A DNA stretch of 64,000 nt from an archaeon (GTDB taxonomy: Archaea; Hydrothermarchaeota; Hydrothermarchaeia; JALTZZ01): NCBI GenBank assembly GCA_027051165.1, contig JALTZZ010000011.1, positions 5,556-69,555 on the forward strand, in the 5' to 3' direction. A program made the position numbers and the translations under genes. This document shows, in pieces, positions 17,947-55,769 of this stretch. How positions within the stretch are numbered: the stretch's first letter is position 1; every line of letters begins with the position of its first letter. Under the pieces are notes generated by a model. It made no database searches, was not told the DNA's origin, and was given only the letters and a program-made list of their open reading frames with translations.

Positions 17947-18421
17947 CTAAATCTGATATCTTTTCCTCAATTCTTTTTTAATCTCATCTAAGCTTTTACC
18001 CTTAAGTAATTCCTCAACAGCCTTTGTATCCAAAGCTAAAAACTTCTCAGACTTAAGACCATATATTATAAAATCCCTATCGTTAGTCCATATCGGTATA
18101 TTAAGCTTCAAAGCCAATGCAATAAAAGGAGAATCCTTAACATCGAAATTCTTCGCAATTTCATAAGCTTCATTTAATTTATCTTTATAGTAGAACTCTG
18201 GTATCACCTTCAAAACCTTTGGGAACTTCTGTGTCAGGATATAAAGTATCTGATCTTCCGATAAAGAAATTTTGTCTTATTTCGTAAAATATATAAGCAG
18301 GAACATATAGGGATAATCTTCTGCCAAATATAAACCTCTTAATCTTTAAACTCTTTATTAAAGCAGAAACGATAATATTCGTATCAACTACAAGTCTAAC
18401 ATTTTCTCGATTTTTTTCCAT
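17947..18421 (-). pseudogene. vapC: PIN-domain toxin VapC with a single-nt frameshift
   Basis: N-terminal VVDTNIIVSAL (ORF 18185..18421) and C-terminal SPFIALALKLNIPIWTNDRDF (ORF 17947..18213). Upstream of ORF2 the same frame reads coding-like SEDQILYILTQKFPKVLKV, placing the shift near 18285. Confidence 0.55.
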
Positions 18422-18609
18422 GCTCTCTCCTTTATATTTTCACTTATTTTCTCAACTTCATCATCTGATATTCTGGATTCCTCTAAAGACCTTTCCCAGA
18501 TAGCATCTATAATTAGGTCGTGTAAAATTTCATTTATTTTTTCTTTCAACAAGTTTTCTGACTTTTCATCTATCCACTCAGGAACCTCTATTGTAATCGT
18601 CTTAGGCAT
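18388..18609 (-). CDS. Putative antitoxin-like small protein upstream of vapC
   Basis: 73 aa acidic protein overlapping the vapC start; no recognisable domain by eye. Confidence 0.3.
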   Translation of the reverse strand: MPKTITIEVPEWIDEKSENLLKEKINEILHDLIIDAIWERSLEESRISDDEVEKISENIKERAWKKIEKMLDL

Positions 18610-18638
18610 ATCCTTTCACCTATTCTTAACGTCGTTTC

Positions 18639-18650
18639 TCACAGCTGCGA
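18639..18650. promoter_or_regulatory. Near-palindrome TCACAGCTGCGA about 30 nt upstream of the putative antitoxin start, copy 3
   Basis: One mismatch to copy 1; promoter-proximal, consistent with an autoregulatory operator. Confidence 0.35.
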
Positions 18651-18750
18651 AAAGTTGTTCAGAACATTCCTCAGCAAGAACTTAAATGCTTTGAACCTTC
18701 TATCAGAAATAAAGCTCAAGGAATATTTAGATATGGAAAAAAAGGAAAAA

Positions 18751-18791
18751 TATAGCCCGGGGCGGATTCGAACCGCCGTCTCGGGATCCAG
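18751..18791. repeat. Direct repeat partner (attL/attR) within and adjacent to tRNA-Gln
   Basis: Identical 41 nt to 3366-3406. Confidence 0.7.
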
Positions 18792-18826
18792 AGTCCCGAA
18801 TGATTGACCAGCTACACCACCGGGCT
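18753..18826 (-). tRNA. tRNA-Gln (anticodon CUG)
   Basis: Reverse complement AGCCCGGTGGTGTAGCTGGTCAATCATTCGGGACTCTGGATCCCGAGACGGCGGTTCGAATCCGCCCCGGGCTA folds as a cloverleaf: 7-bp acceptor stem, anticodon loop CTCTGGA, T-loop GGTTCGAATCC. No encoded CCA. Confidence 0.85.
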
Positions 18827-40514: not shown

Positions 40515-40871
40515 GTGTTGACATTGATAGACGAAGAATTCAGAAGAAGATACCCCAATCTTGCAAGAGAGATTGAGGAAAATCTTATGAGTTTAAAAAT
40601 AGATGGTATTAGGAGTAGCATTGAAGAGGCAGAAAAAGCTGCAAATATAGAGCACTACGAGCCTACAGTTATAGATTTTCTCAGAAGGTGCGAAACCGAA
40701 GAGGAGGGTCTTGAGGTTATTGAATATCTTGAAAAGAGGGGAGAGATAAGCAGAGAGTATGCAGCAAAACTGAAAATACAGCTACTAACAAAAGGGATCA
40801 GAAGTTTTGGTCCAAAAAAAGAACCCGGATACTACTACAGGTTTTTTGGATATAAAGATGAAGAAGATTAG
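40515..40871 (+). CDS. Hypothetical protein
   Basis: 118 aa; no motif recognised. Confidence 0.3.
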   Translation: MLTLIDEEFRRRYPNLAREIEENLMSLKIDGIRSSIEEAEKAANIEHYEPTVIDFLRRCETEEEGLEVIEYLEKRGEISREYAAKLKIQLLTKGIRSFGPKKEPGYYYRFFGYKDEED

Positions 40872-42181
40872 CTCCAGAAGAGCACCAAGAATATATATCC
40901 TAAGAATGTTGAGTAGATCATGTATGGTAAGCCATACTTCATGAAATCTATGGATCTTATAGGATAACCGACTCTTTCGGATATCCCAGCCACGACTATG
41001 TTTGCAGATGCACCTATGAGGGTTCCGTTTCCGCCGAAACATGCTCCTAAGGACAACGCCCATATAAGAGGTGTCGCATCTATTCCTACGGTTCTTGATA
41101 TTGTATCTATGAGAGGTAGCATAGTAGCTGTTAAGGGTATGTTATTTATAAATGCCGAAAGGAATGCCATAAACCAGACTATAACCGTTATTGCCAATAA
41201 AGTATTTTCTCCAATAAGATTAGATATTGAATAAGCAAGCTTATCAATTAATCCAACATTTTCAGCTCCTCTAATAACTACAAACAAAAATGCAAAAAAG
41301 AGTAAAGTGGGCCATTCTACATACTCTAACACTTCCTCTATAGTAAATTTCCTTCTTCCAACTAAAATTAAAAGTAAAGATGCACTTGTAAGTGCTATTA
41401 TTGCTATATTTAGTCCAAGCTTTTTTTGAAGCAAAAACATTAGAATTAATATAAACAAAACAAATAATGATTTTATAAGCAACATCTTATCTTTTATTAA
41501 ATTTTTTTCTGAAATGCTTCTTAGCACGGCTTCGTTAATCTTATTTTTTTTAATATAATCTTTTGTGATAAGGTAGAAGTATGGTATTGATAAGGTTAGG
41601 ACAAAGACTACTAAGGGGAGCATTGTGGGCTTATTTTCATATATTATAAAATCTGAAAAACTTAGGTCCGCATAAGCAGCGATTAAGATGTTCGGTGGAT
41701 CTCCCACAAGTGTTCCAGTTCCTCCTACATTTGATGCTAAAGCGATGATTATTAGTATGGGCACAGGATTTATTTTTAGTAGGTAAGCAACTTCTATAAG
41801 CGGAGGTGTTGTTAATAGAACTGTTGTTACATTATCAAGGATCATTGAAGAAAATGCTGTTAGCATTGCAAATGATATCATTATCAGAAATAAATTTCCC
41901 TTAGATTTCTTTAAAATTTTTACCCCCAACCACTGAAAAACTCCCGTATGCGCTATAATTGATACAATTATCATCATTCCTAAAAGCAATCCTATTACCT
42001 CAAAATCTATTGCAAGAATAGCCTCTTCCCACGTTAAAAAGCCGAAATACGTTCCGGCGAGAACCATTGCAACCGCACCTATGAGTGCAGCAACGGTTTG
42101 ATGAAAAACGTCGAATATTATGAGAAGATATGTTACCAAGAATATTGCTGTTGCTACATAGAAAGACATGTCCGCCTCCAT
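40868..42181 (-). CDS. ArsB/NhaD-superfamily anion permease
   Basis: 437 aa, 10-12 TM. Confidence 0.55.
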   Translation of the reverse strand: MEADMSFYVATAIFLVTYLLIIFDVFHQTVAALIGAVAMVLAGTYFGFLTWEEAILAIDFEVIGLLLGMMIIVSIIAHTGVFQWLGVKILKKSKGNLFLIMISFAMLTAFSSMILDNVTTVLLTTPPLIEVAYLLKINPVPILIIIALASNVGGTGTLVGDPPNILIAAYADLSFSDFIIYENKPTMLPLVVFVLTLSIPYFYLITKDYIKKNKINEAVLRSISEKNLIKDKMLLIKSLFVLFILILMFLLQKKLGLNIAIIALTSASLLLILVGRRKFTIEEVLEYVEWPTLLFFAFLFVVIRGAENVGLIDKLAYSISNLIGENTLLAITVIVWFMAFLSAFINNIPLTATMLPLIDTISRTVGIDATPLIWALSLGACFGGNGTLIGASANIVVAGISERVGYPIRSIDFMKYGLPYMIYSTFLGYIFLVLFWS

Positions 42182-42481: not shown

Positions 42482-43852
42482 TTGAGGTTCGATGTCGTCA
42501 TAATAGGCGCTGGACCCGCTGGTCTCTTTGCCGCTTATGAACTCTCCACAAAAAGCAATCTCAAAGTCCTCATCATAGAAATGGGTAAGGACGTTGAAAA
42601 AAGAGTGTGTCCAATGGAAAAAACTGGTGAGTGCATAAACTGCAAGCCGTGCAATGTTATGAGCGGTGTTGGCGGTAGCGGAGGCTTAAGCGATGGAACG
42701 CTGAATTTAAGACCCGACATAGGAGGAAATCTATACGAATACATGAGCGAGGAAGAAGCTTGGGAGCTTGTAAACTACGTTGATTCCATATGGATAAGGT
42801 TCGGTGCTCCAAAAAAGCTATATAAGGCGACAAGCAGAGAGGAAGAGGAGCTTTCAAGAAGAGCTGCAAGTGCCGGGATAGAGTTCATCCAAATACCTCA
42901 GAGACACATTGGAAGCGACTACACGCCGAAGGTAATAGCTAATATAAGAGATTTCTTAAGAGAGAAAGGAGTTCAGTTTATGCTTGAAACAGAGGTCGTT
43001 AAAATCGAAAAAGATGGGGTCATCCTTAAAGATGGAAGAAAAATAGAATCTAAGTATATAATCTCAGCCCCGGGAAGAGCTGGTGCAAACTTCATGCTTA
43101 ATCAGGCAAAGAGGCTCGGAATAAAGTTTAGACATGGACCTATAGACGTCGGTGTCAGAGTGGAGGTTCCAGCGATAGTTATGGAGGAAGTATGCTCTAT
43201 AAACAGGGATCCAAAGTTTCACATAATTACAAGAACATATGACGACTTCGTTAGAACATTCTGTGTAAATCATAGAGGTTTCGTTGTAAAAGAAACATAT
43301 AAAGGATATGTTGGTGTAAATGGTCACAGCCTAAGAGATAAGCAGACAAACAATACAAATTTTGCTTTTCTGGTTAGAATAGAGCTTACGGAGCCTATAG
43401 AAAACTCGACGGTTTACGGAGAGAGCATTGCAAAAACAGCCACAGTTCTCGGTGGCGGGAATCCTCTGATACAGAGGCTTGGAGATTTAAGAAGGGGTAG
43501 GAGAAGCACTTGGAATAGGATAAACAGAGGACTCGTAAAGCCTACGCTGAAGAGCGTTACGCCCGGGGATATAAGCATGGTGATGCCGCACAGAATTGTT
43601 ACAGACATACTTGAAGGATTGGAAAAATTGGATAGGGTTATCCCAGGAGTCGCAAGCGATTCAACGCTGCTGTATGCACCAGAAATAAAATACTACGCAA
43701 TGAAGGTTGAAGTTAACAAATATATGCAGACAAACATTCCAAATATATTCGTCGCTGGAGACGGCGTAGGCGTTTCAAGAGGACTTATAATCGCAAGTGC
43801 AACCGGCGTTTTAGCTGCAAGAGGCGTTTTAAAAGAATTAGGTATCTTGTAA
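42482..43852 (+). CDS. FAD-dependent oxidoreductase (uncharacterized FAD-dehydrogenase family)
   Basis: VVIIGAGPAGLFAA dinucleotide-binding motif; 456 aa. Confidence 0.7.
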   Translation: MRFDVVIIGAGPAGLFAAYELSTKSNLKVLIIEMGKDVEKRVCPMEKTGECINCKPCNVMSGVGGSGGLSDGTLNLRPDIGGNLYEYMSEEEAWELVNYVDSIWIRFGAPKKLYKATSREEEELSRRAASAGIEFIQIPQRHIGSDYTPKVIANIRDFLREKGVQFMLETEVVKIEKDGVILKDGRKIESKYIISAPGRAGANFMLNQAKRLGIKFRHGPIDVGVRVEVPAIVMEEVCSINRDPKFHIITRTYDDFVRTFCVNHRGFVVKETYKGYVGVNGHSLRDKQTNNTNFAFLVRIELTEPIENSTVYGESIAKTATVLGGGNPLIQRLGDLRRGRRSTWNRINRGLVKPTLKSVTPGDISMVMPHRIVTDILEGLEKLDRVIPGVASDSTLLYAPEIKYYAMKVEVNKYMQTNIPNIFVAGDGVGVSRGLIIASATGVLAARGVLKELGIL

Positions 43853-43982
43853 TTTTTAAATCGCTCTTATATCTTTTCTGGTTGGTAGCTGAACAAATGC
43901 AACATGATTTTAAGCTTAAAAGCGAGAAGTTTCAACTAAAAGGGTTATAAGGCGTTTTTAAATTAATGCGGGTATTTCATCT

Positions 43983-45056
43983 TTGAAGGCTTTTCCCAAC
44001 GTTATTTCAGAGATCTCAGAGACTTCCGCTGTGCCAACTAATTCTACGAAAATTAACATTCAGGGGTCAAAATTGAATGAAGCAGTAGAAGAGCTTAATA
44101 AAATGGTAAAGTTTAGTTTAAACGGAAAATACTTCTATACTACTAAGGGAAGCAGACTTTTAAGGATTTTACCAATAATAAGGAAGAGAAAAGTATTTAC
44201 CACGAGAGACATAGCCAAAGAGCTTGGAGAAGATGTAAGGAGAATATCAGACGTCTTAACATTATTATACAAGAGAGGAGCAATTGAGAGAACACCTGTA
44301 ATATCCTTAGACAGGAACGTAAGGGAAAGAATTTACTACCTGAAAGGCTATGAATACTTAGTTCCAGAGTATTTACTAAACAAATTAGATCCAGATGACA
44401 GGAAGTTTATTGAAGAGCTTATTTTTTCAAAGACTTTGAAGAGTAGCATAAGGCTAGAAAAAGAAGGATTCAGAAACTTCAAAGTCTTAAACAACTTTGT
44501 AAAAGTAGGCTTAGTAAAGAAGAAGACTATACATCTTTGGCACGAAAACGATAGATCCCTAGTAAACGTATTCTATTCACCAAGGCTAAAAGAAAAAGAA
44601 ATTGAGAGACTTATAGAGAAAGAAAAGGAAATACTAAGGGAATACGTTAAAAATGCTGTAAGGAACGGTAGAACACTTGAAAAAGAGGTAGAAGAGTTAG
44701 CATGGAAAATAACCTTTAAGCCTGTTGACGTAAAGAGAAACCAAAGGATAAAGCTTAGAAATGGCATTGAAGTAGAGTTCGATGTTATAGCTATTTTTAA
44801 GCCATTCATTAAAGATAAACCAATAGGCTACTGCTATGGCAAGTGTTTAGTTGTAGCGTTTAGCTGCAAGGAGCTCGCAAGCGGTAACTCAGTTCTCGAG
44901 ATAGTAGCGAATGCAAGGGACATATTCCCTAATGCTATAGTTGTCTTGGTTGCAGAGAATATAACAGAAAGCGTTCTAAGAGAAGCAGAAAAGAGGGAAA
45001 TATTACTTATAGCAAGTAAAAAGCTCAAAGAGTTAAGAGAATTAGCAAAGGACTAA
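43983..45056 (+). CDS. Element protein: winged-helix N-region plus C-terminal restriction-endonuclease-like region
   Basis: KEVFTTRDIAKELGEDVRRISDVLTLLYKRGAIERT wHTH-like; C-terminal DVIAIFKP...CLVVAFSCKE. True start may be M41 (44103). Confidence 0.4.
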   Translation: MKAFPNVISEISETSAVPTNSTKINIQGSKLNEAVEELNKMVKFSLNGKYFYTTKGSRLLRILPIIRKRKVFTTRDIAKELGEDVRRISDVLTLLYKRGAIERTPVISLDRNVRERIYYLKGYEYLVPEYLLNKLDPDDRKFIEELIFSKTLKSSIRLEKEGFRNFKVLNNFVKVGLVKKKTIHLWHENDRSLVNVFYSPRLKEKEIERLIEKEKEILREYVKNAVRNGRTLEKEVEELAWKITFKPVDVKRNQRIKLRNGIEVEFDVIAIFKPFIKDKPIGYCYGKCLVVAFSCKELASGNSVLEIVANARDIFPNAIVVLVAENITESVLREAEKREILLIASKKLKELRELAKD

Positions 45057-45080
45057 CTAACAACGATTTTCCATAGTTCC

Positions 45081-46475
45081 ATGGATAAAGAAGAAAAAAT
45101 AAAAGTATTGGAACTATTGTATCAATCTGGCATTGTCTCAATACCATATATTTTTTCAGTGCTATACGAGAAAAAAGATGCATGCTTAGACATTAGATTT
45201 AAGAGAAGAAAAATAAAACAGCTTCAGCGGTTTTTCAATGAGCTACATGACTTAGGAATCGTGAAAAAAGAGAGATATGGGAAGATTGTTTTTTACAAAT
45301 TAAACGAAGTCCGCAAGGACATAATTAGCTCGGTAATTAAGACAAAGTATTATTCAAAAAAATCAAAAAGGTCAAATTCGCTTCAAAAGCTTTTTTACAT
45401 CGTAAATTCGTTAGATAATAAGGAAAATTTAACGGGAAGAATGAAAAATATAGATATTTTAAGCAATACAATAATGCTAAATAACGATGTCAAAGCGAAA
45501 ATAATAAACGAATTTTTGTATTATATCATGAACATAAACAATAAAATCGTTATTTTCAAAAAAACGGAAGATAAACATGAAATAACAGAGGACGGCTCAG
45601 TTATTCTATATGACCAACCAGAGTATTTAGCATATGACTACAGGGTAAGGTTTAATTCGGCAAGATGGTTCAAAAATGTAAACAGATTTATAAGAAATGC
45701 ATTTGAGGAAGCAGGAAAGAGATTTAAATGGGCAGTTCACATAACTTTAACGGTAAATCCTAAGAAGTTTAACAACCACGTAGAAACAGTAATAAAAGCA
45801 AAAAAGCAATTAAACAGTTTTTTAACAACATTACGTTATCAGCAAAAGAAATTATATGAAAAGGGCTTAAGCAAACATAAAAAACTATATTATTTATGCT
45901 TTACAGAATTCGGGGAAGAAAACGGGTTAATACATTTTCATCTTATAGTTTTTGGAAGAAGAAGGATAGCAGATATTAAAAACTTAGAAGAAAAGAAATG
46001 GAAAATAGGCTATGTAAAAGCGAAACAATTAGTTTATAAGCGTGGAATTGGATGGACTTACCCCAAATGGAAGAACCGACCAAAAGATTTTGACAAAAGA
46101 GTTAAAAAAATTTTAGGCAACAAATATAGCTTTAAATTCCCAATTAAGCTATATTTCTACTTCTCATTACCTAAGATGAAGAAGAAGGATGATAAATTAG
46201 AGAAAGATGATTACGATGGCTTAGATCCTTACTTTTTATTAAATTATGCTTTATTGTTTACATACAATCTAAAGTATATCACTTACAGCAGAAACATTTT
46301 AAAGTGGAACGTAGAACCTTATGGAATAAGATATATTGACCTTCCAAATGATAACTATGAATTTTTTGCTGTATGCTATGAATGGGATCTAAAAACAACT
46401 TTTATTGGAAAGTATAGCTTATATGATTTGCTGTTTTATTCGGATGCTTTTATCATAAAATCGAAAGGAGGTTGA
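45081..46475 (+). CDS. rep: HUH-superfamily rolling-circle replication initiator (Rep)-like protein with N-terminal wHTH
   Basis: Motif I HITLTV, motif II (HUH) HFHLIVF and Tyr/Lys motif GYVKAKQLVYK, all in canonical order. Confidence 0.6.
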   Translation: MDKEEKIKVLELLYQSGIVSIPYIFSVLYEKKDACLDIRFKRRKIKQLQRFFNELHDLGIVKKERYGKIVFYKLNEVRKDIISSVIKTKYYSKKSKRSNSLQKLFYIVNSLDNKENLTGRMKNIDILSNTIMLNNDVKAKIINEFLYYIMNINNKIVIFKKTEDKHEITEDGSVILYDQPEYLAYDYRVRFNSARWFKNVNRFIRNAFEEAGKRFKWAVHITLTVNPKKFNNHVETVIKAKKQLNSFLTTLRYQQKKLYEKGLSKHKKLYYLCFTEFGEENGLIHFHLIVFGRRRIADIKNLEEKKWKIGYVKAKQLVYKRGIGWTYPKWKNRPKDFDKRVKKILGNKYSFKFPIKLYFYFSLPKMKKKDDKLEKDDYDGLDPYFLLNYALLFTYNLKYITYSRNILKWNVEPYGIRYIDLPNDNYEFFAVCYEWDLKTTFIGKYSLYDLLFYSDAFIIKSKGG

Positions 46476-46939
46476 GAACAATGACAGAAACGTATGGATA
46501 TTTTTGCCCAAAATGCGAAATAAGGTGGGTAAGATATCTAAATAAGGGAGAATTTTTAGCTTGTGGTTGTGGGGTAAAAAAGGAAGATGCTCCATATATA
46601 TACAGAAAGCACTATGGAAACGATAGAACGCAAATCTACATAAAATTCAAAGACATAATAATAGAAAGAACCTTTAAAACAGAGGAAACGAAGAAAATAG
46701 AAGAAGAATTAAAGAAGCTAGTAAAAGGAAACAAATACGAAGATTTACTAAAGAAAGCGATAGAAAACGCTTTGTATGGAATGAGTCACTACGACCACTA
46801 TTGGGTAAGGTGCAGAAAATGCAAACACTATCTAGGAAGACTTAGAAAAAGAAAATGTAAGCTCCACAGATGGCTTAGTATTGGTTGCAAAGATTTTATA
46901 AAAAGAAAAAAGCCATTAAATGATATAATAGCAATATAG
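46472..46939 (+). CDS. Multi-zinc-ribbon protein
   Basis: CPKCEIRW...CGC and CRKCKHYLG...CKLHRW...C. Confidence 0.45.
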   Translation: MRTMTETYGYFCPKCEIRWVRYLNKGEFLACGCGVKKEDAPYIYRKHYGNDRTQIYIKFKDIIIERTFKTEETKKIEEELKKLVKGNKYEDLLKKAIENALYGMSHYDHYWVRCRKCKHYLGRLRKRKCKLHRWLSIGCKDFIKRKKPLNDIIAI

Positions 46940-46941
46940 AG

Positions 46942-47178
46942 GTGAATAAGATGCCATTCAGTAGAAAAGAAAGAAAATTTCTGGAAGAACTACTTAAGCT
47001 TAATAAACCAAGTGCAGATGATGTAGTAAGAGCATTTTACAAAGTTTATGGAGAGAACAATCATGCAAACTATCCTTACGTAGTAAAGCATAGAATAAAA
47101 AAGAAAGTAGAACAAATGGAAGAAGATTTAGAATTATACTACAAAGTTCAGCATATTTTACAGCTATTAGGCTACTGA
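46942..47178 (+). CDS. Small hypothetical protein of the element
   Basis: 78 aa; 2-nt gap to the previous gene. Confidence 0.35.
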   Translation: MNKMPFSRKERKFLEELLKLNKPSADDVVRAFYKVYGENNHANYPYVVKHRIKKKVEQMEEDLELYYKVQHILQLLGY

Positions 47179-47636
47179 CAGCAATTATAAGCAGAATACC
47201 TATAAACTAACGGTCTTAATTTATCCTTATTTTATATATTTTAAGAATGAAATAGGATTTTTGATATCTGCTGCCTGCTGAGCTCCTGCAGGATCTTGCT
47301 ATGGTCCTATGCACATTAATTAATATTTTATAATGTAGTTTATTATAGATCATAAGTTTGTAAGCGCTTCTGGAACTTCCGGAAACCTAATCAGAGCCTA
47401 TAAGCTCTAAGCTGCAGATGTCTAACAACAATCTGTAAGAATGGACCATTATGACAACTATATGTAAGATATGCAACTGTTACATGATTATGCACAACCA
47501 TATAAATAAGCATAAATTAAGCTTAATATTCAAAAATAAGGAAATTAAACAAAAATTGTAAAAAGTAACTCACGCCAAACCGTTGGTAACAAACCTCAGT
47601 TACTTTTATTAATATTAAAAAGATGTATTATAAAGC

Positions 47637-48149
47637 ATGGGAAAGAAGATCACGATCACAGGCTCTAAGATATTTGATATAGGTTATAGATACTTCTTAG
47701 TAGAGCAAGCTTTAGGCTTTGGAATAGAAAGGTTTAGAGCTGTTAATTTAAGAAAAGAAAATAAATTATTAGTTTTTGTTGAAGGAAATGAAGAAGCTTT
47801 AAACGAGTTCGTAGAATTTGCTAAAAATAATTTTCCTAAGGATGCTCAAGTAGATAACATTGAAGTTGAAGACTACAAAGGCTATGTTCCAAAAGTAGAT
47901 CAGTTTTTGCTTTTGTTTAATGTCCAACAGTCAAGAAAGTTTATAGAAATTGGTAAAGAGGTAAGAGACGAAGTTAAACAAACAAGAGAAGAGCTTGGCA
48001 AAAAGATAGAAGATGTAGGGAAGAAGGTTGATAAAGTAGCAGACAAAATAGATGAGCTAAGAACAGATCTAAAGAGCTATATGGATGAAAGATTCAGAAT
48101 AATAGAAGAGGACATAAGAAAAATAAAAGCAAAATTAGGGATGATTTAA
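47637..48149 (+). CDS. Acylphosphatase-like N-domain plus coiled-coil protein
   Basis: ITGSKIFDIGYRYFLVEQALGFGIERFRAVNL...LLVFVEG resembles the acylphosphatase VxGxVQGVxFR...G..G.V.N...G.V pattern. Confidence 0.35.
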   Translation: MGKKITITGSKIFDIGYRYFLVEQALGFGIERFRAVNLRKENKLLVFVEGNEEALNEFVEFAKNNFPKDAQVDNIEVEDYKGYVPKVDQFLLLFNVQQSRKFIEIGKEVRDEVKQTREELGKKIEDVGKKVDKVADKIDELRTDLKSYMDERFRIIEEDIRKIKAKLGMI

Positions 48150-48374
48150 ATGCAACAAAAGAAAACTAAACCAAAAAAGCAACAGAAAAGATTTTTCTCA
48201 TTTTTAGATGATCTTAAAGGGGAAGATGTAGAAGTAATAATGCATAGCGGCATGAAGTTTGAAGGCAAAATATTAGATGTAAGCGATTTTGAGCTAAAAT
48301 TTAAGCCTAAAGATAAAGAAGAAGTTTGGTATATACATAAAAGCCATATAGCAATTTTAAAGCTTAAATTTTAG
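48150..48374 (+). CDS. Small basic protein (possible nucleic-acid binding)
   Basis: KKTKPKKQQKRF basic N-terminus followed by a beta-rich segment. Confidence 0.3.
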   Translation: MQQKKTKPKKQQKRFFSFLDDLKGEDVEVIMHSGMKFEGKILDVSDFELKFKPKDKEEVWYIHKSHIAILKLKF

Positions 48375-48507
48375 CTATACGTCTCAAAGTTCTTAGCTCG
48401 GTAACTAATTGTAAAATCAAAGCTGAAATATTTTCAGTATTATATTCCTTTTTTAGTTCTTCAAGCTTCTTCATAGCTTCATCGTTGAGATATACACTTA
48501 CGCCCAT
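48364..48507 (-). CDS. Ribbon-helix-helix (CopG-like) small DNA-binding protein (47 aa; not in ORF track)
   Basis: MGVSVYLNDEAMKKLEELKKEY..., an RHH beta-strand followed by a helix; divergent from the structural operon. Confidence 0.5.
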   Translation of the reverse strand: MGVSVYLNDEAMKKLEELKKEYNTENISALILQLVTELRTLRRIAKI

Positions 48508-48654
48508 AGTCGTTTATATATACGGCAATTGTATAAAAATCTTTCGTCATCTAAGATTATCTTAGAAAATCTTAGAAAGTCTAATATTATCTTTAAATTC
48601 CAAAAGAAAGGTATTTATAAGGTATTTTTCAGAAATTATGTTGGAGGTGATAGC

Positions 48655-49632
48655 ATGAAATTTAAACATATTTTATTAACTTTTGTCTTGGTTTTGGTAG
48701 CGATTTCAAGCGTTTCAGCAAGCATATATGACTTTGAGAATACCAACGAAATTCAGTTGTTCGAACAGCTAATGATAGACAGCAACAACACTATCTCCAC
48801 ATTAAATACCAGCTATGCAACTATAACCGTTACTAATGGCTTAGTAATGCTCAAAAGTTTGGACAATATACACATGCCGGCAATAGCAATACCCTATCAG
48901 CAGGGGCAAGTCTATGCCGTTGAAGGTAAAAACCTAAAAATCGGAGTTATAGCGAACAATACACTACAAGGAGCAATAGACATAATTGACAGAGGATATA
49001 TATACTTTGATAGTCAAACAGCAGCAGTATTAACCGATGGAGCTTTCAGCATAAAGGTATTTTCAACAACACCAATAGAGAAAGTTGTTATATACTCAAA
49101 AGATGGTTTAATAGATAAATTAGCCATTGATACACCAAAAACAGAGCTAAGCAGCGGTAGCCATCTATATCAATGGTCAGGAACTACAAGCGTAACAAAA
49201 AGAATAACACTAACTGCTGGAGCAAGATATAAATTCTATCTGGTGCAAAGCGGAGATACTGATGCTTTTCTGTTTAAACCAAGCAATCCAAATTATGGAA
49301 GTGCATCTGAATACCAAAGCTATCATTGGCTAGTTAATAATGCAGACTTTAAGCACTACATAGGAACAAAATACTACACAGCACCAGAAAGCGGAACATA
49401 TAAGCTCGTAATTAAGATTTTATCAGGAGACAGCTGGAGCTACACTATTGATTGCATATCAGGATGTAGCAGCAATACTCCACCTCCGGATAATAATCCA
49501 CCGCCAAGCCAAGATAATCCAGCAGGAATAGTAAAGAACATGGATGATAAAAAGAAAATGCTGCTAATTGGTATCGGAGCTTTTGCAGTAACGCTATTTA
49601 TAGTGTTCTTGGCTGGAGGGAGAAGAAAATGA
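48655..49632 (+). CDS. Secreted protein with signal peptide, Pro-rich stalk, C-terminal TM anchor and basic tail (spike/adhesin-like)
   Basis: GGAGGTGA RBS; MKFKHILLTFVLVLVAISSVSA signal peptide; PPPDNNPPPSQDNP; LLIGIGAFAVTLFIVFLAGGRRK. Confidence 0.6.
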   Translation: MKFKHILLTFVLVLVAISSVSASIYDFENTNEIQLFEQLMIDSNNTISTLNTSYATITVTNGLVMLKSLDNIHMPAIAIPYQQGQVYAVEGKNLKIGVIANNTLQGAIDIIDRGYIYFDSQTAAVLTDGAFSIKVFSTTPIEKVVIYSKDGLIDKLAIDTPKTELSSGSHLYQWSGTTSVTKRITLTAGARYKFYLVQSGDTDAFLFKPSNPNYGSASEYQSYHWLVNNADFKHYIGTKYYTAPESGTYKLVIKILSGDSWSYTIDCISGCSSNTPPPDNNPPPSQDNPAGIVKNMDDKKKMLLIGIGAFAVTLFIVFLAGGRRK

Positions 49633-50195
49633 TGCATATATTCATATTACTAATTTTATTGGCTATCCCTACTGCTGTTGCACAGGAATTACCCATACAG
49701 CAGTTTAATAATGAAATAGAAGCTTATCAACTGCAACAGGCACAGCTTGCACAGCTTGCAGCTCAATATGATCTAACCAAAGCCATAACAGTTTATAGCG
49801 GAGTATTGTTTAATGGATGGAAAAGCTATGGAACTATAGAGATCCCCAAGGATTGGAAAAAGGTCTACCTAATAATAATACCCACAGAAGCCCCAAGAGC
49901 TGATGTAAGAATATATGCAATGATTAATGGTCAGGAAGTATTAGCAAATGCTCCCTTAGGAGCAACAGTAAGCGTTGATATAACTGATGCTCTATCTTCT
50001 ACAAGAACAGCAAGCATAAATATATATGCTTCAGGATCAGTCAGAGCAAAAGTTCTCGTAGCTCCACCAAATCCAGCAGTAATGCAGGCTGAAGAGCTAA
50101 ACAGCAACATCAAAAATACAAAATATATACTAATAGGTTTAGCAGGCATAATTTTAGCAGCAATAGTTGTAACAGCAGGAAGAAAGAGGAGATAA
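49629..50195 (+). CDS. Secreted protein with signal peptide and C-terminal TM anchor plus basic tail
   Basis: ILLILLAIPTAVAQ signal; C-terminus YILIGLAGIILAAIVVTAGRKRR. Confidence 0.55.
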   Translation: MMHIFILLILLAIPTAVAQELPIQQFNNEIEAYQLQQAQLAQLAAQYDLTKAITVYSGVLFNGWKSYGTIEIPKDWKKVYLIIIPTEAPRADVRIYAMINGQEVLANAPLGATVSVDITDALSSTRTASINIYASGSVRAKVLVAPPNPAVMQAEELNSNIKNTKYILIGLAGIILAAIVVTAGRKRR

Positions 50196-50197
50196 AA

Positions 50198-50350
50198 ATG
50201 ATTGCCTTAATTTTTATTTTATTATTATTTCTAATGGCAGCAGTAACGGTAGTTGTCATAGATCCAATCAAGCTTGCAATAATAATGCTGTTTTTCCTTG
50301 GAGTATTTTGGGTATATCTTGCCCATGCCCATGGAGGGCAGAAAAAATGA
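50198..50350 (+). CDS. Small (50 aa) two-helix membrane protein (not in ORF track)
   Basis: MIALIFILLLFLMAAVTVVVIDPIKLAIIMLFFLGVFWVYLAHAHGGQKK; ATGA overlap with the next gene. Confidence 0.45.
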   Translation: MIALIFILLLFLMAAVTVVVIDPIKLAIIMLFFLGVFWVYLAHAHGGQKK

Positions 50351-50976
50351 AATTACTAATAATTCTACTGTTACTATTGCCAATAGTGTATGCTCAGGAT
50401 GTAGAAGAGATAGAACTTGGAAAACCACCAGAACTAAGTAGCACAGGCTACACAATAAAAAAGGGAGAATATGTTACCTGTTGGATAAAGATGCCAGATA
50501 ATCCATTAATAGGAGAAAAATATGGCGGAGCAGTAGGACTATATTCAACAAATCAGGACATCAGGATATACGCTGTTGCAAAGGGATTTATAAGACATAC
50601 ACCAAGGCTTGAAGTATATGAAAATTCTCAGCTAAAGACCCATGCAGAGTTCGAAGAAAATCAGTTTAACGAGGAATTTCAAGTGAGATTGGCATATTTA
50701 AACGATGGAACAATAAAAATAGGATACAGGTATGCAACAGTCACTGAATGGCAGATTTTGTATAGTGTTTTAGCAAAGTCTTCAATGTATTCTGTTAAAG
50801 GATTAAAAGCCTATAAATGCGAGAAAAGACAAATTGCACCACCAAGTCCACCAAGTAACGGAAACAATCCTTTTGATGACAGTGAACCTTTTGACAAATC
50901 AGATAACAAGAAATACCTACTTGCTGCAGGAGCTTTGATAATAATAGCATTAATACTGCTGGTGACAAGAAAATGA
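50347..50976 (+). CDS. Secreted protein with signal peptide, Pro/Ser-rich linker, C-terminal TM anchor and basic tail
   Basis: MKLLIILLLLLPIVYAQ; PPSPPSNGNNP; LLAAGALIIIALILLVTRK. Confidence 0.55.
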   Translation: MKLLIILLLLLPIVYAQDVEEIELGKPPELSSTGYTIKKGEYVTCWIKMPDNPLIGEKYGGAVGLYSTNQDIRIYAVAKGFIRHTPRLEVYENSQLKTHAEFEENQFNEEFQVRLAYLNDGTIKIGYRYATVTEWQILYSVLAKSSMYSVKGLKAYKCEKRQIAPPSPPSNGNNPFDDSEPFDKSDNKKYLLAAGALIIIALILLVTRK

Positions 50977-52073
50977 ACGAAGTTTTGTTTTATATTTTAT
51001 TTAGCATTCCATTTGGCTTAACTCTATATTTAACTTTAGTAAGACACATAAAAGCTCATGTTATTGACAATAGAGACCATGCAAGATTCTTTTTATATCC
51101 ATATCCTCCAAGAAGGATGCTTATTCTTCATAAGCTCGATGGAAAATTTAGCATATACTATGATGATCAAATAAAAGAAATAAAAGGAGATGAAAAAAGT
51201 GAAGTATCATGTAAAAATCATGATGAAGTAGATCATTTTGTTTTAGATGGAAATCTAAGCGATTACAGCTTAAAAGTAAGCATGTATGATGCAAGAGGAG
51301 CAAAAGGTTATGATAGTCCTTTCAGCTTGGCATGGCGATGGATCGTAGCAGCAAGCTTTACCGTATATATAAACTACATTGCAATGATAGAAGGCTGGTT
51401 CCCAAGAAATGGCGAACCCGACATGTTTTGGGCAATGCTTGGAACTATGGCTTTTTTCCTAAGTTTAATGTGGTTCCTAACGAACATTATTAGATTTCGA
51501 GATGAAACAATAGAATACATATATCTGCTCCCTAAATCAATAAATCAGGGGTTAACAGAATACGTTCATGCTCCGGAGCCTCTTAGCAACCTAAGCCTAC
51601 CAAACTTTCTCAAAAGACTCGGTAAAGAAATTAAGGTAGAGGTTCCAAATGAGCTTAAAGAAGTATTTGAAAATCTAAAAAAGGGAAAAAAGGACGTTTT
51701 AGTATCAGCATTAAGCCTTACCAAGTTTTATGAAGCTGAAGCTTGGAGAAAAGCACTAAGCCAAAGCTTAGAGGACATGATGAAGCTAAGAAAAGCTGGA
51801 GAAACAATTGCTCTCATAAAGATGAAGGGGCTTATATATAGACCTGTAATGGTCTATGTTGTCATCTTTATATTGGGCTTAATTATTGGCTACATATTTG
51901 GTAACATATTTTCAATTGGCTTTGAAGAACCAACGGAGCATGCAAGGAACTTAACTCAAGTTCCCATCATATCACAGATACCACAGAACATAACACTACC
52001 TCAGCCTCAGCTACCGGAGCTCCCAGAGGCTCCTCTTAAACCTGCTCCTCCACCACCTCCACCAACGAGGTGA
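50973..52073 (+). CDS. Polytopic membrane protein with Pro-rich C-terminal tail
   Basis: N-terminal TM, central TM pairs, C-terminal TM, PELPEAPLKPAPPPPPPTR. Confidence 0.45.
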   Translation: MNEVLFYILFSIPFGLTLYLTLVRHIKAHVIDNRDHARFFLYPYPPRRMLILHKLDGKFSIYYDDQIKEIKGDEKSEVSCKNHDEVDHFVLDGNLSDYSLKVSMYDARGAKGYDSPFSLAWRWIVAASFTVYINYIAMIEGWFPRNGEPDMFWAMLGTMAFFLSLMWFLTNIIRFRDETIEYIYLLPKSINQGLTEYVHAPEPLSNLSLPNFLKRLGKEIKVEVPNELKEVFENLKKGKKDVLVSALSLTKFYEAEAWRKALSQSLEDMMKLRKAGETIALIKMKGLIYRPVMVYVVIFILGLIIGYIFGNIFSIGFEEPTEHARNLTQVPIISQIPQNITLPQPQLPELPEAPLKPAPPPPPPTR

Positions 52074-52423
52074 GACCCATGATTGAGCTTATAGCAAGCA
52101 TAATTCTCATTGTTTTAATGGTTCAGGTCTTCATTATAATATATTTAAAGACAAAGAGCTTGTTTAAGGCATGGATATTTGCTTTAATAATAGGCAAAGC
52201 AATAGTTGTTGTCTTTTGGGCATTTGGTATTGAACACTCATTAGGAACTTTATACATATACAACAAAAGGAGTAATGAAGTAATATCCTTTGAGATTACT
52301 TCAAGTCATGTCATATTTTTAGCTTTTTTAAGCTCATTGATTATAAGTTTGTTTTGGTATGACATAATAAGATATGCTCCACCTTCATTGAGAAAAAGAA
52401 TAAAAGATAAGAGGGGGATATAA
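52070..52423 (+). CDS. Small membrane protein (3-4 TM)
   Basis: 117 aa hydrophobic. Confidence 0.4.
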   Translation: MRPMIELIASIILIVLMVQVFIIIYLKTKSLFKAWIFALIIGKAIVVVFWAFGIEHSLGTLYIYNKRSNEVISFEITSSHVIFLAFLSSLIISLFWYDIIRYAPPSLRKRIKDKRGI

Positions 52424-52735
52424 ATGGAGTTCTACGATGCACCAAAAATGATAGAATTCGGAATAAAGCTTGGAAAAGACAGCGTAGATAGAATTTTAGA
52501 AGTTCTCAGAAAAGGAGATCTAAAGGAGATATTAGCATACATAGATGAAGAAGCTGCAAGAGGATTATTTTTTGCTTTTGCTGATTTGGAAATTCACAAG
52601 AATATTGAGTATATTGCAAGTAGCAGCAAGAAACCTGAATATCTTGAAGTAGAGTTCCTAAGAGCATTTTCTCTAAGCGAGAAGATAATAAAATTCTCTA
52701 CACCTAAGTTTGATCTTCAGGTGGAAAGAGGATGA
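52424..52735 (+). CDS. Hypothetical soluble protein of the element
   Basis: 103 aa; start/stop overlap with the following NTPase gene. Confidence 0.35.
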   Translation: MEFYDAPKMIEFGIKLGKDSVDRILEVLRKGDLKEILAYIDEEAARGLFFAFADLEIHKNIEYIASSSKKPEYLEVEFLRAFSLSEKIIKFSTPKFDLQVERG

Positions 52736-53601
52736 ACATACTAAACGTAATTGCTGGAGAAAAGAGAGTTGATGGAGTAGAACTTAGAACAATAACTATA
52801 ATAGGAACTATGGGAAGCGGTAAAACAACATTAGCGAGACATTTAGCTTCAAGGGGCTACAGAGAGTTAACACAAAGAGGAGTTGATGACAGCAGAATAT
52901 TAATAGTTCACTTTTATAGATCAAGCATAACCGCTATTCTCAATTATTTAACCGAAAATTTTGATTTAGAAGATATAGAATTTCTCTATCTTATAAATGA
53001 CGATGCTGCTTATATGAACATGAGCAGAAGAGCAATGAATGATATAAACATAAATGATGCAAGGCAGTATATTGTTATTAGGCATAAGCTTGCGGAGAAT
53101 AATTTTAAAGGCGTTTTGATTGCTGTTCACTTAACACAACTTTATTATTTGCTGGACAAAGTGTTAAGGGATTCTCAAGTTTTAATGTTTAAAAGCATGA
53201 GTAGGGATAATAATGAGAGGAAATATTTAGCTACACTTTTAGGTAGGCATTATTTTAGAGTTCTAAGAAAGATAAGCGATGATATAGCGTATGGGAACAA
53301 AGATAGGTATATAGAAGCATTAAGCAGAGCAGTTGCAGTTGTTGGTTCAAGAAGACTTATTTACGAGTTTAAAAAAGAAGATCCACCAAGAAATATCTAT
53401 TATGAAGTATCTCCAGAGGAAATAAATATAGAACCTAAGATTACTTTGAACACTTTAAGGGATTTTGTAAGAGGTTGTGGGATACAGGCTAAAGATACAA
53501 AAATTTACAGGCTATATAAGCTGATTAATGCTTATTTAAATGGCTTGGATGTAGATATGCTACTTCAGGAGATCCAAGAGGAGGTGGAAGCTCATGCTTA
53601 A
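52732..53601 (+). CDS. P-loop NTPase with N-terminal Walker A
   Basis: IIGTMGSGKTTLARHL; 289 aa; last-but-one gene of the operon. Confidence 0.6.
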   Translation: MNILNVIAGEKRVDGVELRTITIIGTMGSGKTTLARHLASRGYRELTQRGVDDSRILIVHFYRSSITAILNYLTENFDLEDIEFLYLINDDAAYMNMSRRAMNDININDARQYIVIRHKLAENNFKGVLIAVHLTQLYYLLDKVLRDSQVLMFKSMSRDNNERKYLATLLGRHYFRVLRKISDDIAYGNKDRYIEALSRAVAVVGSRRLIYEFKKEDPPRNIYYEVSPEEINIEPKITLNTLRDFVRGCGIQAKDTKIYRLYKLINAYLNGLDVDMLLQEIQEEVEAHA

Positions 53602-54349
53602 GTATGTAGTTATATGTATTATTCTCTGTTCCTTATTCCCTGTTGCAGCATCTGAACAAGAGCAGCTAATAAAAATGATGGTGGACAAAGGCTGGGACAA
53701 AGGAGTAGCAATTGTTACTGCTGATGGATACTATGGAACAGGCTGGTGGATTGATAGGAATACCATGGTAACAGCAGCACATGTAGTTGAATATAAGTAT
53801 AAGACTGTTAGAGTAATTCATGGATATTTCGAAACTACAGGAAGAGTTGTCTCAATAGACCAAAAAAGAGACATAGCAATAATAAAAACCCAAAGCATGC
53901 CTAAGGATGCCTATATTTTTGTGATTGATAAAAGAGTTGAAAAAACGGAAACCGTATATGCAATAGGCTACCCTTATGAACTTATGCAGCTTGAGAGAGA
54001 CGTTTACAGCCTAAGTGCAAATCCAAGAATAGCAAAGGGAACTATTAGCTGGATATCTCCAGATATTGGCATTGCTGAGATAACAGTTAGCGTGGATGCA
54101 GGTAACAGCGGTGGTCCGGTAGTAAATGAAAATGGTGAGGTAGTAGGCTTGGTAACTTTTGCTTTAAAAGGTAGGGCTGCTACCCTTTATTTTATAACAT
54201 TAAGCAAGGAGCTTGAGGGAAATGTTAACTATAGAGTAGGATTAGGATTGTCTCATGAACAAAGAGAAATGCTTAAATCTATCGCATTAGGGATATTTAT
54301 CTCTGTATTCACTACATTCTTAGTGCTTTATGGGTTCAGAAAGAGGTAA
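53594..54349 (+). CDS. Membrane-anchored trypsin-like (S1/HtrA-like) serine protease
   Basis: Signal peptide; TAAHVV (His), DIAIIK (Asp), GNSGGPVV (Ser); C-terminal TM plus FRKR. Confidence 0.65.
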   Translation: MLKYVVICIILCSLFPVAASEQEQLIKMMVDKGWDKGVAIVTADGYYGTGWWIDRNTMVTAAHVVEYKYKTVRVIHGYFETTGRVVSIDQKRDIAIIKTQSMPKDAYIFVIDKRVEKTETVYAIGYPYELMQLERDVYSLSANPRIAKGTISWISPDIGIAEITVSVDAGNSGGPVVNENGEVVGLVTFALKGRAATLYFITLSKELEGNVNYRVGLGLSHEQREMLKSIALGIFISVFTTFLVLYGFRKR

Positions 54350-54816
54350 TTTTTCAATTAAAAAATTATAAAGGACCTTAGCATTCTCTCTGGAGCTTTT
54401 AATAGTCCACTTTATACTACCCAAAATTTCTACAACACCTTTCTTCCTAACTATGCCTACTTCCTTAAATTTTATACCGTCTATCTGTCTTAAGTTCATA
54501 CTCAGCATGTTATCCTTTTTTAAAATCAATCCAGAACGTTTATAGCAAATAAGCCTTTTATTTGTAATAACTAATTCACTATATTTTTCATCATTTACCA
54601 CAAACTTCTTTAAATCAAACTTATATTGAATCTCCTCATTAGGCAATAAAAAATCTTGCAAACCTATAGTAAGATCACCATTAACCTTTATATATCAGTT
54701 ATGACAATATATAACACAAAAATGGGAACGGAGGTGGAAGACAACATGGAAACACCAACAACCACCTGTAAGGATAAGTATGTACTTTTCTTATATATAA
54801 AAGTTACGGTCGTTTA

Positions 54817-54902
54817 TGCGGGGGGAGGGATTTGAACCCTCGCAGGCTCTACGCCAACGGATCCTGAGCCCGTCCCCTTTGACCAGACTCGGGCACCCCC
54901 GC
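54817..54902 (-). tRNA. tRNA-Leu (anticodon CAG) with long variable arm
   Basis: Reverse complement GCGGGGGTGCCCGAGTCTGGTCAAAGGGGACGGGCTCAGGATCCGTTGGCGTAGAGCCTGCGAGGGTTCAAATCCCTCCCCCCGCA; anticodon loop CTCAGGA. Confidence 0.8.
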
Positions 54903-55769
54903 ATATTCAAGCAGAGCTTTACCAAATCCATAGCCGAAGTATGTGCTCGTTATTCCAAGTATCTCCTGAAGGAAAGTTTTTTCACGATAATATACAATCT
55001 CAGGTTTTTTTGTTATATTTGCAAGCTTTTTCGCAATCTCTATGGCATCCTCCTTGGTTCCGACCTCATCCACAAGTCCCACTTCCTTTGCCTGAAGTCC
55101 AGTATACAACCTACCTTCGGCAATCTTTCTTACATAGTCTTTGCTCAAGTTTCTGTTATCAGCCACCTCCTCGATAAACATATCGTATATTTGATAGCTT
55201 ATATTTTCGAGCATCTCTATTTCCTCCTGCGTTAGCGGTCTGTATCCGCTTCCCATGTCCTTATATTTCCCAGCCTTAATTACGGTTACATTTATTCCAA
55301 GCTTCTTTAAAAGTCCAGAATAATCGGTAAATATTGATATAACCCCTATACTACCGGTTAAGCTCCCCTTACTTGCAACTATATAGTCACATGCGCTTGC
55401 AATATAGTATGCACCGCTTGTGCCTATCTCGCCAATCCAAGCAACAACTGGCTTGTTTGACTTCTTTATAATGTTTGCTATCTCATCACTCGCCACCACG
55501 CTACCGCCGGGACTGTTTATTTCTATCAGTATTGCCTTAACACTGTTATCGGATAACGCCCTCTCAAAGAACCTTTTAAACTTCTCAGGTGTAGTTGCAC
55601 TCGTGCTAAAGAACCCCTCTTGTTCGTCGAGGGATATAACCCCTTTAACCTCTATTATTGCTATTTTTTCTCCACCAACCTTTTCCCTTGGAGAAATCAT
55701 ATATACAAATACTATTGAAATTATAAGAAGGCTGAATATCATGAGTAGAAATAAAAATATTAAACGCAT
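54849..55769 (-). CDS. sppA: Signal peptide peptidase SppA (S49 family)
   Basis: N-terminal TM; GSVVASDEI; catalytic Ser in SLTGSIGVIS and Lys in VIKAGKYKDMGSG. The last about 18 codons overlap the tRNA-Leu gene. Confidence 0.7.
   Translation of the reverse strand: MRLIFLFLLMIFSLLIISIVFVYMISPREKVGGEKIAIIEVKGVISLDEQEGFFSTSATTPEKFKRFFERALSDNSVKAILIEINSPGGSVVASDEIANIIKKSNKPVVAWIGEIGTSGAYYIASACDYIVASKGSLTGSIGVISIFTDYSGLLKKLGINVTVIKAGKYKDMGSGYRPLTQEEIEMLENISYQIYDMFIEEVADNRNLSKDYVRKIAEGRLYTGLQAKEVGLVDEVGTKEDAIEIAKKLANITKKPEIVYYREKTFLQEILGITSTYFGYGFGKALLEYAGVPESGQRGRAQDPLA

Follow-up and report, generated by a model that had tools for sequence, protein, structure and literature searches.

The analysed window covers 64 kb of a scaffold of 68.5 kb from the metagenome of a deep-sea vent deposit (ERZ23495399, REYS20-1). 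At ~43.9–54.8 kb, with ordinary host genes on both sides, lies an element of about 10.9 kb that is probably the genome of an enveloped archaeal virus residing in the host chromosome; the virus would belong to the same lineage as 2 isolates, Aeropyrum globular virus 1 (AGV1) and Sulfolobus super-elliptical virus (SSeV). A replication block of 4 co-directional + strand genes (43983–47178) is followed, after an AT-rich spacer, by 12 further + strand genes (47637–54349 in the open reading frame [ORF] map), with an opposite-strand ribbon-helix-helix (RHH) gene lying inside. The ORFs, the HUH Rep, the P-loop NTPase, the anchored trypsin-like protease and the tRNA-Leu(CAG) gene were located by the ORF map, Pfam matches and motifs at the positions given in the initial annotation, and the gene overlaps reported there are real, with starts and stops of adjacent genes overlapping by 4–8 nt. 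The 2 parts, described in that annotation as divergently arranged, are co-directional. The signal-peptide/C-terminal-anchor design proposed for 3 secreted proteins was recovered in a hydropathy scan, but the best starts for 2 of them are 48655 and 50347 rather than 48529 and 50308; the lengths given below for these proteins (325, 188, and 209 aa) are counted from ATG starts. The short distance between the protease and the tRNA gene also holds (467 nt from the protease stop), but a gene for a 113-aa bacterial-PH-domain protein lying between them had been overlooked. The features are as follows.

43983–45056, + strand: winged-helix DNA-binding protein, 357 aa, first gene of the replication block; weak matches to TrmB, MarR and HVO_A0114 helix-turn-helix domains, residues 57–114
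45081–46475, + strand: HUH rolling-circle Rep, 464 aa; PF23343 (REP_ORF2-G2P), 41.1 bits against a cutoff of 27.8
46472–46939, + strand: basic Zn-ribbon-type protein, 155 aa, with CPKC and CRKC motifs
46942–47178, + strand: small protein, 78 aa, last gene of the block; weak HTH_54 match only
47179–47636, no strand: non-coding AT-rich spacer, 458 nt, 30% GC, with several short GC-rich palindromes
47637–48149, + strand: protein with an acylphosphatase-like domain and a coiled coil, 170 aa; PF00708, E 2.8e-8
48150–48374, + strand: basic small protein, 74 aa; weak SH3/LSM-type matches only
48364–48507, − strand: RHH regulator, 47 aa, at the head of the putative morphogenetic operon; RHH_1, 20.9 bits, above cutoff
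48655–49632, + strand: secreted, C-terminally anchored β-rich protein, 325 aa; signal peptide, transmembrane (TM) helix and GRRK tail
49629–50195, + strand: secreted, C-terminally anchored protein, 188 aa; hydropathy scan, homologs in sister loci
50198–50350, + strand: hydrophobic membrane protein, 50 aa; hydropathy scan, homologs in sister loci
50347–50976, + strand: secreted, C-terminally anchored protein with a Pro-rich linker, 209 aa; hydropathy scan, homologs in sister loci
50973–52073, + strand: polytopic membrane protein with a Pro-rich tail, 366 aa; most conserved hallmark of the module
52070–52423, + strand: three-TM protein, 117 aa; always 3' of the 366-aa gene
52424–52735, + strand: acidic soluble protein, 103 aa; directly before the NTPase
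52732–53601, + strand: ASCE P-loop NTPase with an FtsK/HerA-like fold, 289 aa; generic P-loop Pfam matches only
53594–54349, + strand: membrane-anchored trypsin/HtrA-like serine protease, 251 aa; Trypsin_2, E 1.2e-19
54320–54661, − strand: bacterial-PH-domain protein, 113 aa, between the protease and the tRNA; bPH_3, 24 bits, above cutoff
54816–54903, − strand: tRNA-Leu(CAG), flanking host gene, 3' end towards the element

Nine of these genes (those for the 325-, 188-, 50-, 209-, 366-, 117- and 103-aa proteins, the NTPase and the protease; 48655–54349) recur in the same order in 4 uncultured vent metagenome or metagenome-assembled genome (MAG) contigs, hereafter sister loci L004, L007, L009, and L011, with 30–60% identity in tblastn searches. 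Identity reaches 57–60% for the 366-aa protein, which has a further homolog in locus L052, 48–60% for the 103-aa protein and 34–40% for the 325-aa protein. Among GenBank phage and archaeal-virus records, a tblastn search with the NTPase retrieved only AGV1 (E 4e-23). Four module proteins have AGV1 homologs in phmmer comparisons, namely, the NTPase (gp32, E 6e-29), the protease (gp04, E 1e-29), the 366-aa protein (gp07, E 8e-12) and the 117-aa protein (gp11, E 1e-5 to 1e-9), and 3 of the 4 also have homologs in SSeV: the 366-aa protein (gp33, tblastn E 2e-35, the strongest match to any isolate), the 117-aa protein (gp2, E 3.5e-10) and the protease (gp9, E 8e-10). These homologs, together with the occurrence of the cassette beside integrases of the Sulfolobus spindle-shaped virus (SSV) type elsewhere, bear out the initial view of the locus as a mobile virus-like element. 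We have high confidence that the nine-gene block is, at the sequence level, homologous to the module of AGV1/SSeV-type viruses, an informal group without a family recognized by the International Committee on Taxonomy of Viruses, and its predicted role is virion morphogenesis.

AGV1 (NC_036595; unclassified), a temperate virus available as an isolate, forms spherical virions of 60 nm and has a circular double-stranded DNA genome of 18.2 kb; its single major virion protein, ORF1_309, was detected with an internal N-terminus (bioRxiv 10.1101/2021.04.21.440749). This protein (gp01) has a signal peptide, a β-rich ectodomain, a C-terminal TM helix and a basic tail, and 3 further AGV1 proteins as well as the secreted proteins of the window follow the same design. 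The 2 genomes are also alike in encoding small membrane proteins (with 2 TM segments in AGV1) and RHH regulators, and AGV1-type loci carry a small protein of about 105–110 aa in the slot before the NTPase that is occupied by the 103-aa protein in the window. AGV1 differs from the window element in its larger genome, crenarchaeal host and 56% GC, in its SSV-type integrase with an embedded tRNA-Glu and lack of a Rep, and in the layout of the module, which is split into 2 divergent operons with the NTPase adjoining the integrase. The identities between AGV1 and window proteins are only 21–32%.

SSeV (MN539721) is a lytic virus with a 15.4-kb genome that forms plaques on S. islandicus; we found no published description of it in the literature searched, where it is cited only as a tool virus. 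Its gene order is collinear with that of the window, proceeding from gp33 (366-aa-like) and gp2 (117-aa-like) through a small protein and the P-loop ATPase gp6 to the protease gp9. The SSeV backbone differs in being fusellovirus-like (integrase, B251, D244 nuclease, and VP2) and includes no Rep. The SSeV ATPase, although in the slot equivalent to that of the window NTPase, is a true homolog of SSV1 B251 (E 1e-13) with no detectable similarity to the window NTPase beyond the P-loop. The virus is filed by NCBI under Fuselloviridae; several of its small ORFs are in common with SSV1, and no match to VP1/VP3 was found. Judging from its genes, SSeV looks like a fusellovirus backbone joined to a different virion module. 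In the window, a phmmer comparison with the SSV1 ORFs uncovered no match to the Fuselloviridae core, including the small hydrophobic major capsid protein of the VP1/VP3 type.

An N-terminal hydrophobic segment was seen in the hydropathy scan for the 325-, 188- and 209-aa proteins as well as for the protease, and at the C-terminus all 4 have a TM helix ending in a basic tail (GRRK, GRKRR, TRK, and FRKR); 3 hydrophobic segments were found in the 366-aa protein and 3 TM segments in the 117-aa protein. The 3 anchored secreted proteins, along with the small hydrophobic proteins, would be inserted into the host membrane and subsequently become virion envelope proteins; the major virion protein of AGV1 has the same design. 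The 325-aa protein, which shares both topology and gene position with AGV1 gp01, is a candidate major virion envelope protein; in locus L053, which has an AGV1-type layout, the slot of the AGV1 major virion protein is filled by a 325-aa-protein homolog (E 1e-15 against L011 and 7e-8 against the window). The 366- and 117-aa membrane proteins may organise assembly or budding, the FtsK/HerA-like NTPase would move or load the genome, and the membrane-anchored serine protease, which has the triad motifs TAAH/DIAI/GNSGG in addition to a signal peptide and a C-terminal anchor, may mature virion proteins. Expression of the operon would be controlled by the RHH protein. Searches of the module proteins against PHROGs, NCBIfam and PDB sequences were uninformative, save for the protease and P-loop noise.

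The NTPase carries a Walker A motif (GTMGSGKT at residue 25) and a Walker B motif (LYLINDD at residue 85), and its AlphaFold model, built from 40 homologs, is confident, with a predicted local distance difference test score (pLDDT) of 89. Among viral models, Foldseek placed an uncultured archaeal virus protein and AGV1 first, followed by a Nitrosopumilus spindle-shaped virus protein (6e-9), many A32-like packaging ATPases, Zot and FtsK; among PDB structures, the matches were TcpA, RecA, EccC, STIV B204 and HerA. The packaging NTPase B204 of STIV2 scored almost level with VirB4, and AAA+ initiators slightly lower. An FtsK/HerA-type ATPase is the best supported assignment, though not decisively. 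The sequence identity to viral packaging ATPases of this type (STIV2 B204, A32-like) and to VirB4 is only 13–15%, and such ATPases work either with icosahedral capsids that contain an internal membrane or in secretion systems. No jelly-roll capsid protein is evident in the element. A weak link to the fusellovirus ‘DnaA-like’ B251 was also found (PHROG 5484, E 5e-6; hhalign probability of 59–65% over the Walker A–B stretch). We prefer a function in packaging or translocation, with replication initiation as the alternative. A distant relative of the NTPase (tblastn E 3e-6) is encoded by the 84-kb circular ‘uncultured archaeon 10H_0’ plasmid (L063, LC711081.1 67421–68488), whose annotation calls it a DnaA-like replication initiator; the plasmid lacks the remainder of the module.

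The cassette is rare. Only 6 NTPase relatives of >45% identity were found among 5.8 billion proteins, and an exhaustive HMMER search of 1.84 billion cluster representatives yielded only 170 clusters at E ≤1e-3. Pattern scans with the NTPase and 366-aa profiles retrieved nothing from the GTDB species representatives or IMG/VR and 2 loci, one of them new, from Joint Genome Institute metagenomes. A profile search recovered 45 NTPase relatives, including proteins from a Desulfurococcales MAG and Pyrodictium abyssi. In the loci of such relatives that we inspected (L050, L052, L053, and L054), an integrase adjoins the NTPase, and in those reaching far enough, the operon has the protease as its last gene. 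The GC content of the module copies follows that of their own flanks, from 33% to 65%, which argues for long residence in different hosts.

The surroundings of the module vary among the sister loci. In L007, L009 and L011, an SSV-type integrase (PF16795) and a 70-aa RHH-like DNA-binding gene, the latter in the slot equivalent to that of the 47-aa RHH gene of the window, precede the cassette, and genes for membrane-anchored proteins of 65 and 312 aa follow the protease; the 3 loci differ from the window in carrying an extra 128-aa Zn-ribbon gene. An SSV-type tyrosine integrase is present in AGV1, SSeV, L007, L009, L011, L050, L052, L053, and L054, but not in the window, whereas a Rep, present in the window, is encoded by none of the sister loci. 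The sister-locus integrases match AGV1 gp25 (phmmer), and those of L007 and L009 are ~40% identical to the integrase of AvPV1 (Archaeoglobus veneficus pleomorphic virus 1; blastp E 3e-65). The relatives of AvPV1 genes, the integrase and the next 70-aa RHH-like gene, lie at 13–1175 in L009, 4490–5532 in L007 and 4667–5538 in L011. The RHH-like gene is akin to AvPV1 gp02, but the morphogenetic modules are unrelated, a pattern suggesting that integration cassettes have been exchanged between vent virus families. In L009 the first residues of the integrase ORF (MGPPRFELGSP...) correspond to tRNA-like sequence, which is what an SSV-type int(C), split at an att site, would be expected to show.

Some further observations concern individual sister loci. 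L004 has no adjacent Rep or tyrosine integrase, and its module lies within an apparent defence island (1–5000 and 11900–18800), flanked by 2 AAA_15/AAA_21 ATPases, DUF2357/PDDEXK_7, a McrB-like 612-aa protein, a Mrr-TrmB fusion and a serine resolvase. In L007 (13891–13963), a 19-nt palindrome, TTGTCATATTATGACAATA, is present in 3 tandemly spaced copies 3' of a 311-aa gene and could be an operator or an origin iteron. The end of the 312-aa protein of L009 (7708–8646), TPGFEIALGAVAILSTLYLRRKFQ, resembles a PGF-CTERM archaeosortase signal; no NCBIfam model for an archaeosortase-type sorting signal was matched. The other anchored proteins have a looser common ending, a G-x-G motif followed by a TM segment and RR(K).

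The Rep of the replication block belongs to the HUH superfamily (PF23343 type, two-tyrosine), displaying all 3 motifs of the uuTLT, HUH and YxxKY consensus: ITLT at 221, HFH at 285–287 and YNLKY at 395–399, comparable to VTLT, HLH and YLGKY in the Rep of the pleolipovirus HRPV-1. Conservation of these motifs indicates a genuine, catalytically intact HUH enzyme and upholds its earlier description as a rolling-circle Rep. The pairwise BLASTP alignment with the HRPV-1 Rep has an E-value of 1e-7 and covers motifs I–II. Database-wide, even the best matches are weak, namely, those to microvirus Reps (E 2e-4), Thermococcus prieurii plasmid pTP2 (E 6e-3) and HRPV-1 (E 0.2), and a k-mer-indexed database of 5.8 billion proteins contained no relative other than the query itself; the protein is therefore an orphan two-tyrosine HUH Rep. 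The start of the 155-aa gene overlaps the Rep stop by 4 nt, and the two are predicted to be translationally coupled. No family match was obtained for the 155-aa protein in Pfam or other family searches, and the 357-aa winged-helix protein has no homolog in the 4 sister loci (tblastn). The adjoining spacer, with palindromes at 47270–47300, 47390–47420 and 47564–47604, is a candidate double-strand origin and/or promoter region: the repeat search identified inverted repeats I10 and I23, its predicted folding is not significantly better than that of shuffled sequences (z −1.7), and no Rfam family was matched. The element would replicate as a rolling-circle episome from this spacer, having swapped the SSV-type integrase of its relatives for the block of winged-helix protein, HUH Rep and Zn-ribbon protein.

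The element has a GC content of 33.6% compared to ~37% in its flanks. Its upstream neighbour, an FAD oxidoreductase, is 73–77% identical to proteins from MAGs labelled Methanobacteriota or Hydrothermarchaeota and 64% identical to Thermococcus proteins, with no crenarchaeal matches. These affinities indicate that the host is most likely an uncultured euryarchaeon of the vent deposit, and hence that the viral lineage would be cross-phylum. The host genes around the element (7657–15328, 40868–42181 and about 57–63 kb of the window) include a molybdopterin oxidoreductase, a response regulator, ArsP, ACR3-type and ArsB-type transporters and, upstream of the element, a V-type ATPase operon; on the downstream side is a cluster for cytochrome c maturation (Ccm). 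No CRISPR array is present in the 64-kb window.

Taken together, the homology of the module to those of 2 isolated viruses, the design of the anchored proteins and the rarity and portability of the cassette make an enveloped virus of the AGV1/SSeV lineage the probable source of this element, and the idea put forward at the outset, that of an unclassified family of enveloped or pleomorphic viruses, appears reasonable. Several results count against this conclusion. Some concern the proteins: the secreted proteins have no significant similarity to AGV1 gp01 (hhalign probability of 8–11%), and their families did not match AGV1 gp01, gp03, gp08 or gp27; the structure-based comparison recommended by the initial annotation, productive in revealing the FtsK/HerA-type fold of the NTPase, gave only a low-confidence single-sequence AlphaFold2 model for the 325-aa protein (pLDDT 41). 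The genes for the 65- and 312-aa proteins are absent from the window (tblastn), as they are from L004. Conversely, no relative carries the replication block, the acylphosphatase-like gene or the PH gene, and only contiguity joins them to the module. The acylphosphatase-like gene, missing from L004, L007, L009, and L011, is present only on 2 long contigs, the 74-aa gene is likewise not common to the relatives, and the PH gene, whose inclusion in the element is uncertain, has no counterpart in related loci (tblastn).

Further points on the same side concern the borders. As initially reported, neither an integrase nor an att duplication is visible: tblastn with the proteins of all relatives detected no integrase or integrase remnant in the window, and a repeat search of 42–56.5 kb combined with a k-mer comparison of the borders detected no att-type direct repeat of at least 10 nt between them. 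The best border match is a 9-mer, which is at chance level; this sequence, GTAATTTTT (43849–43857 and 54346–54354), overlaps 2 stop codons, that of the host gene upstream and that of the protease gene, with ~0.6 matches expected by chance, and is not evidence of an att site. The tRNA-locus comparison in related genomes was carried out by following the upstream FAD oxidoreductase through 34 GTDB genomes and one 90%-identical strain, which has 83.5% nucleotide identity across the oxidoreductase gene region. Because synteny is not kept in any of them, there was no empty site to examine and none was found. The proposed use of the tRNA gene as the integration target has accordingly gained neither an att repeat nor an empty site in its favour. 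An independent Logan assembly of the same run bridges neither junction, its contigs ending at 43890/43902 and 54819/54836, so that integration rests on a single assembly lineage; it also leaves out 47571–48438, with the acylphosphatase-like and 74-aa genes. The contig ends may reflect border heterogeneity or an excised form, or may be trivial (coverage, poly-G at the tRNA end).

Whether the whole 10.9-kb stretch is a single entity has to be judged separately. We conclude with moderate confidence that it is one composite viral element with a rolling-circle Rep in place of an integrase. The main competing explanation, to which we assign a clearly smaller but not negligible likelihood, is that 2 unrelated neighbours have accumulated at a tRNA-Leu hot spot: an integrated rolling-circle plasmid (43983–47178) and a remnant of an integrase-less, possibly defective, AGV1/SSeV-type provirus (48364–54349). 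The relatives have only the nine-gene module in common and the Rep block has no relative at all, the 2 parts are separated by the 458-nt spacer and the unshared acylphosphatase-like gene, the Logan assembly breaks between them, at 47570 and 48439, and in L004, too, neither a Rep nor a tyrosine integrase adjoins the module. However, both parts run in the same direction in a tight arrangement that no host-type gene interrupts, and a module devoid of any replication or integration gene would be orphaned. Moreover, related viruses exchange backbones in the same manner, as illustrated by the fusellovirus genes of SSeV and the AvPV1-type integrase of L009.

A plasmid that uses the module for vesicle- or contact-mediated transfer, either as a ‘plasmidion’ or through a conjugation-like process with a VirB4- or coupling-protein-like ATPase, is an unlikely explanation. 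The Rep is of a plasmid type, there is no recognisable capsid protein, and the NTPase has weak matches to TrwB and TraD in Pfam and NCBIfam, but Pfam revealed no other conjugation component, the STIV2 packaging NTPase scores nearly as high as VirB4, and homologous modules are found in 2 isolates that make virions or plaques. Furthermore, the hallmark 366-aa protein has no homolog among PLSDB plasmids (tblastn), and tblastn of this protein and the NTPase against PLSDB gave no match to an archaeal-plasmid core, with the presence of pT26-2, pTN3, and pTN1/pGT5 in that database unconfirmed. The resemblance to Thermococcales plasmids suggested in the initial annotation found no match in PLSDB, the only tie being that of the Rep to pTP2 (E 6e-3).

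Very unlikely is membership in Pleolipoviridae or ‘Thalassapleoviridae’, implying a pleomorphic virion with a VP4-type fusogen. The pattern of gene content (Rep, secreted proteins with an anchor, small membrane proteins, and NTPase) is comparable, the Rep aligns to that of HRPV-1 over motifs I–II, and these families also combine one envelope-protein module and an NTPase with alternative replication and integration modules, including rolling-circle Reps; thalassapleoviruses occur in vent archaea, some with such Reps (PMC10919331). Nevertheless, the module shares nothing with the HRPV-1, AvPV1, and GacPV1 proteomes by phmmer, and none of its families reached 20% hhalign probability with the VP3, VP4, ORF6-like protein or NTPase of these viruses in any pair. 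The window NTPase compared to pleolipovirus VP8 gave an E-value of 0.13 and a probability of 0.4%, and the 3 secreted-protein families have no phmmer or hhalign match, at the sequence level, to the VP4 fusion proteins of the 3 viruses, which, at about 490–520 aa, are considerably longer than the window proteins (about 190–325 aa). Pleolipoviruses and thalassapleoviruses have a different NTPase family and lack the protease and the 366-aa hallmark protein. In a database-wide comparison, the match to the HRPV-1 Rep lacks significance (E 0.2) and does not surpass those to microvirus Reps or pTP2. The only links are the integrase and DNA-binding gene pair of L007 and L009 and the weak Rep similarity, and the pleolipovirus-type identity suggested by the initial annotation was rejected on the absence of module-protein matches to VP3, VP4 and the NTPase. 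Least probable of all is that the locus belongs to the host as an island for surface structures or secretion, whether domesticated or never mobile, an alternative raised by the initial annotation: despite a GC content near that of the host, the lack of an integrase and att site and a set of products consisting of membrane or secreted proteins, an ATPase and a protease, the portable cassette is extremely rare, missing from the nearest available genomes and GTDB representatives rather than syntenic in all relatives, always located beside mobility genes elsewhere and homologous to genes of cultured viruses.

A broader interpretation, which we offer as a tentative possibility, is that AGV1, SSeV, and the vent elements form an unrecognised archaeal virus lineage spanning 2 phyla, defined by its module of membrane proteins, ATPase and protease and, like the pleolipoviruses, repeatedly swapping its maintenance module. 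The latter would be a backbone of the fusellovirus type in one case, an integrase of the AvPV1 type or a serine resolvase context in others, and a rolling-circle Rep in the present locus. On that view, the window element is the first member to bear a Rep and may package single-stranded DNA, and an FtsK/HerA-type motor would load DNA into a lipid-enveloped, capsid-less particle.

AGV1, described in one preprint, and SSeV, known from GenBank only and as a tool virus, have been treated as orphans. The locus described here and its sisters indicate that the 2 viruses have a conserved morphogenetic module in common, which is also present in euryarchaeal genomes from deep-sea vents and is associated with at least 3 different integration/replication backbones. 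This suggests a second case, besides pleolipoviruses, in which several genome-maintenance modules have been coupled to a single virion type, and raises the questions of how an FtsK/HerA-like ATPase operates in a capsid-less enveloped virion and what role a virion-associated membrane protease plays. The lack of relatives of the group in the IMG/VR pattern scans points to a blind spot of viral databases, and the 366- and 117-aa membrane proteins, the NTPase and the anchored protease provide a gene set with which a new family may be defined and further members sought.

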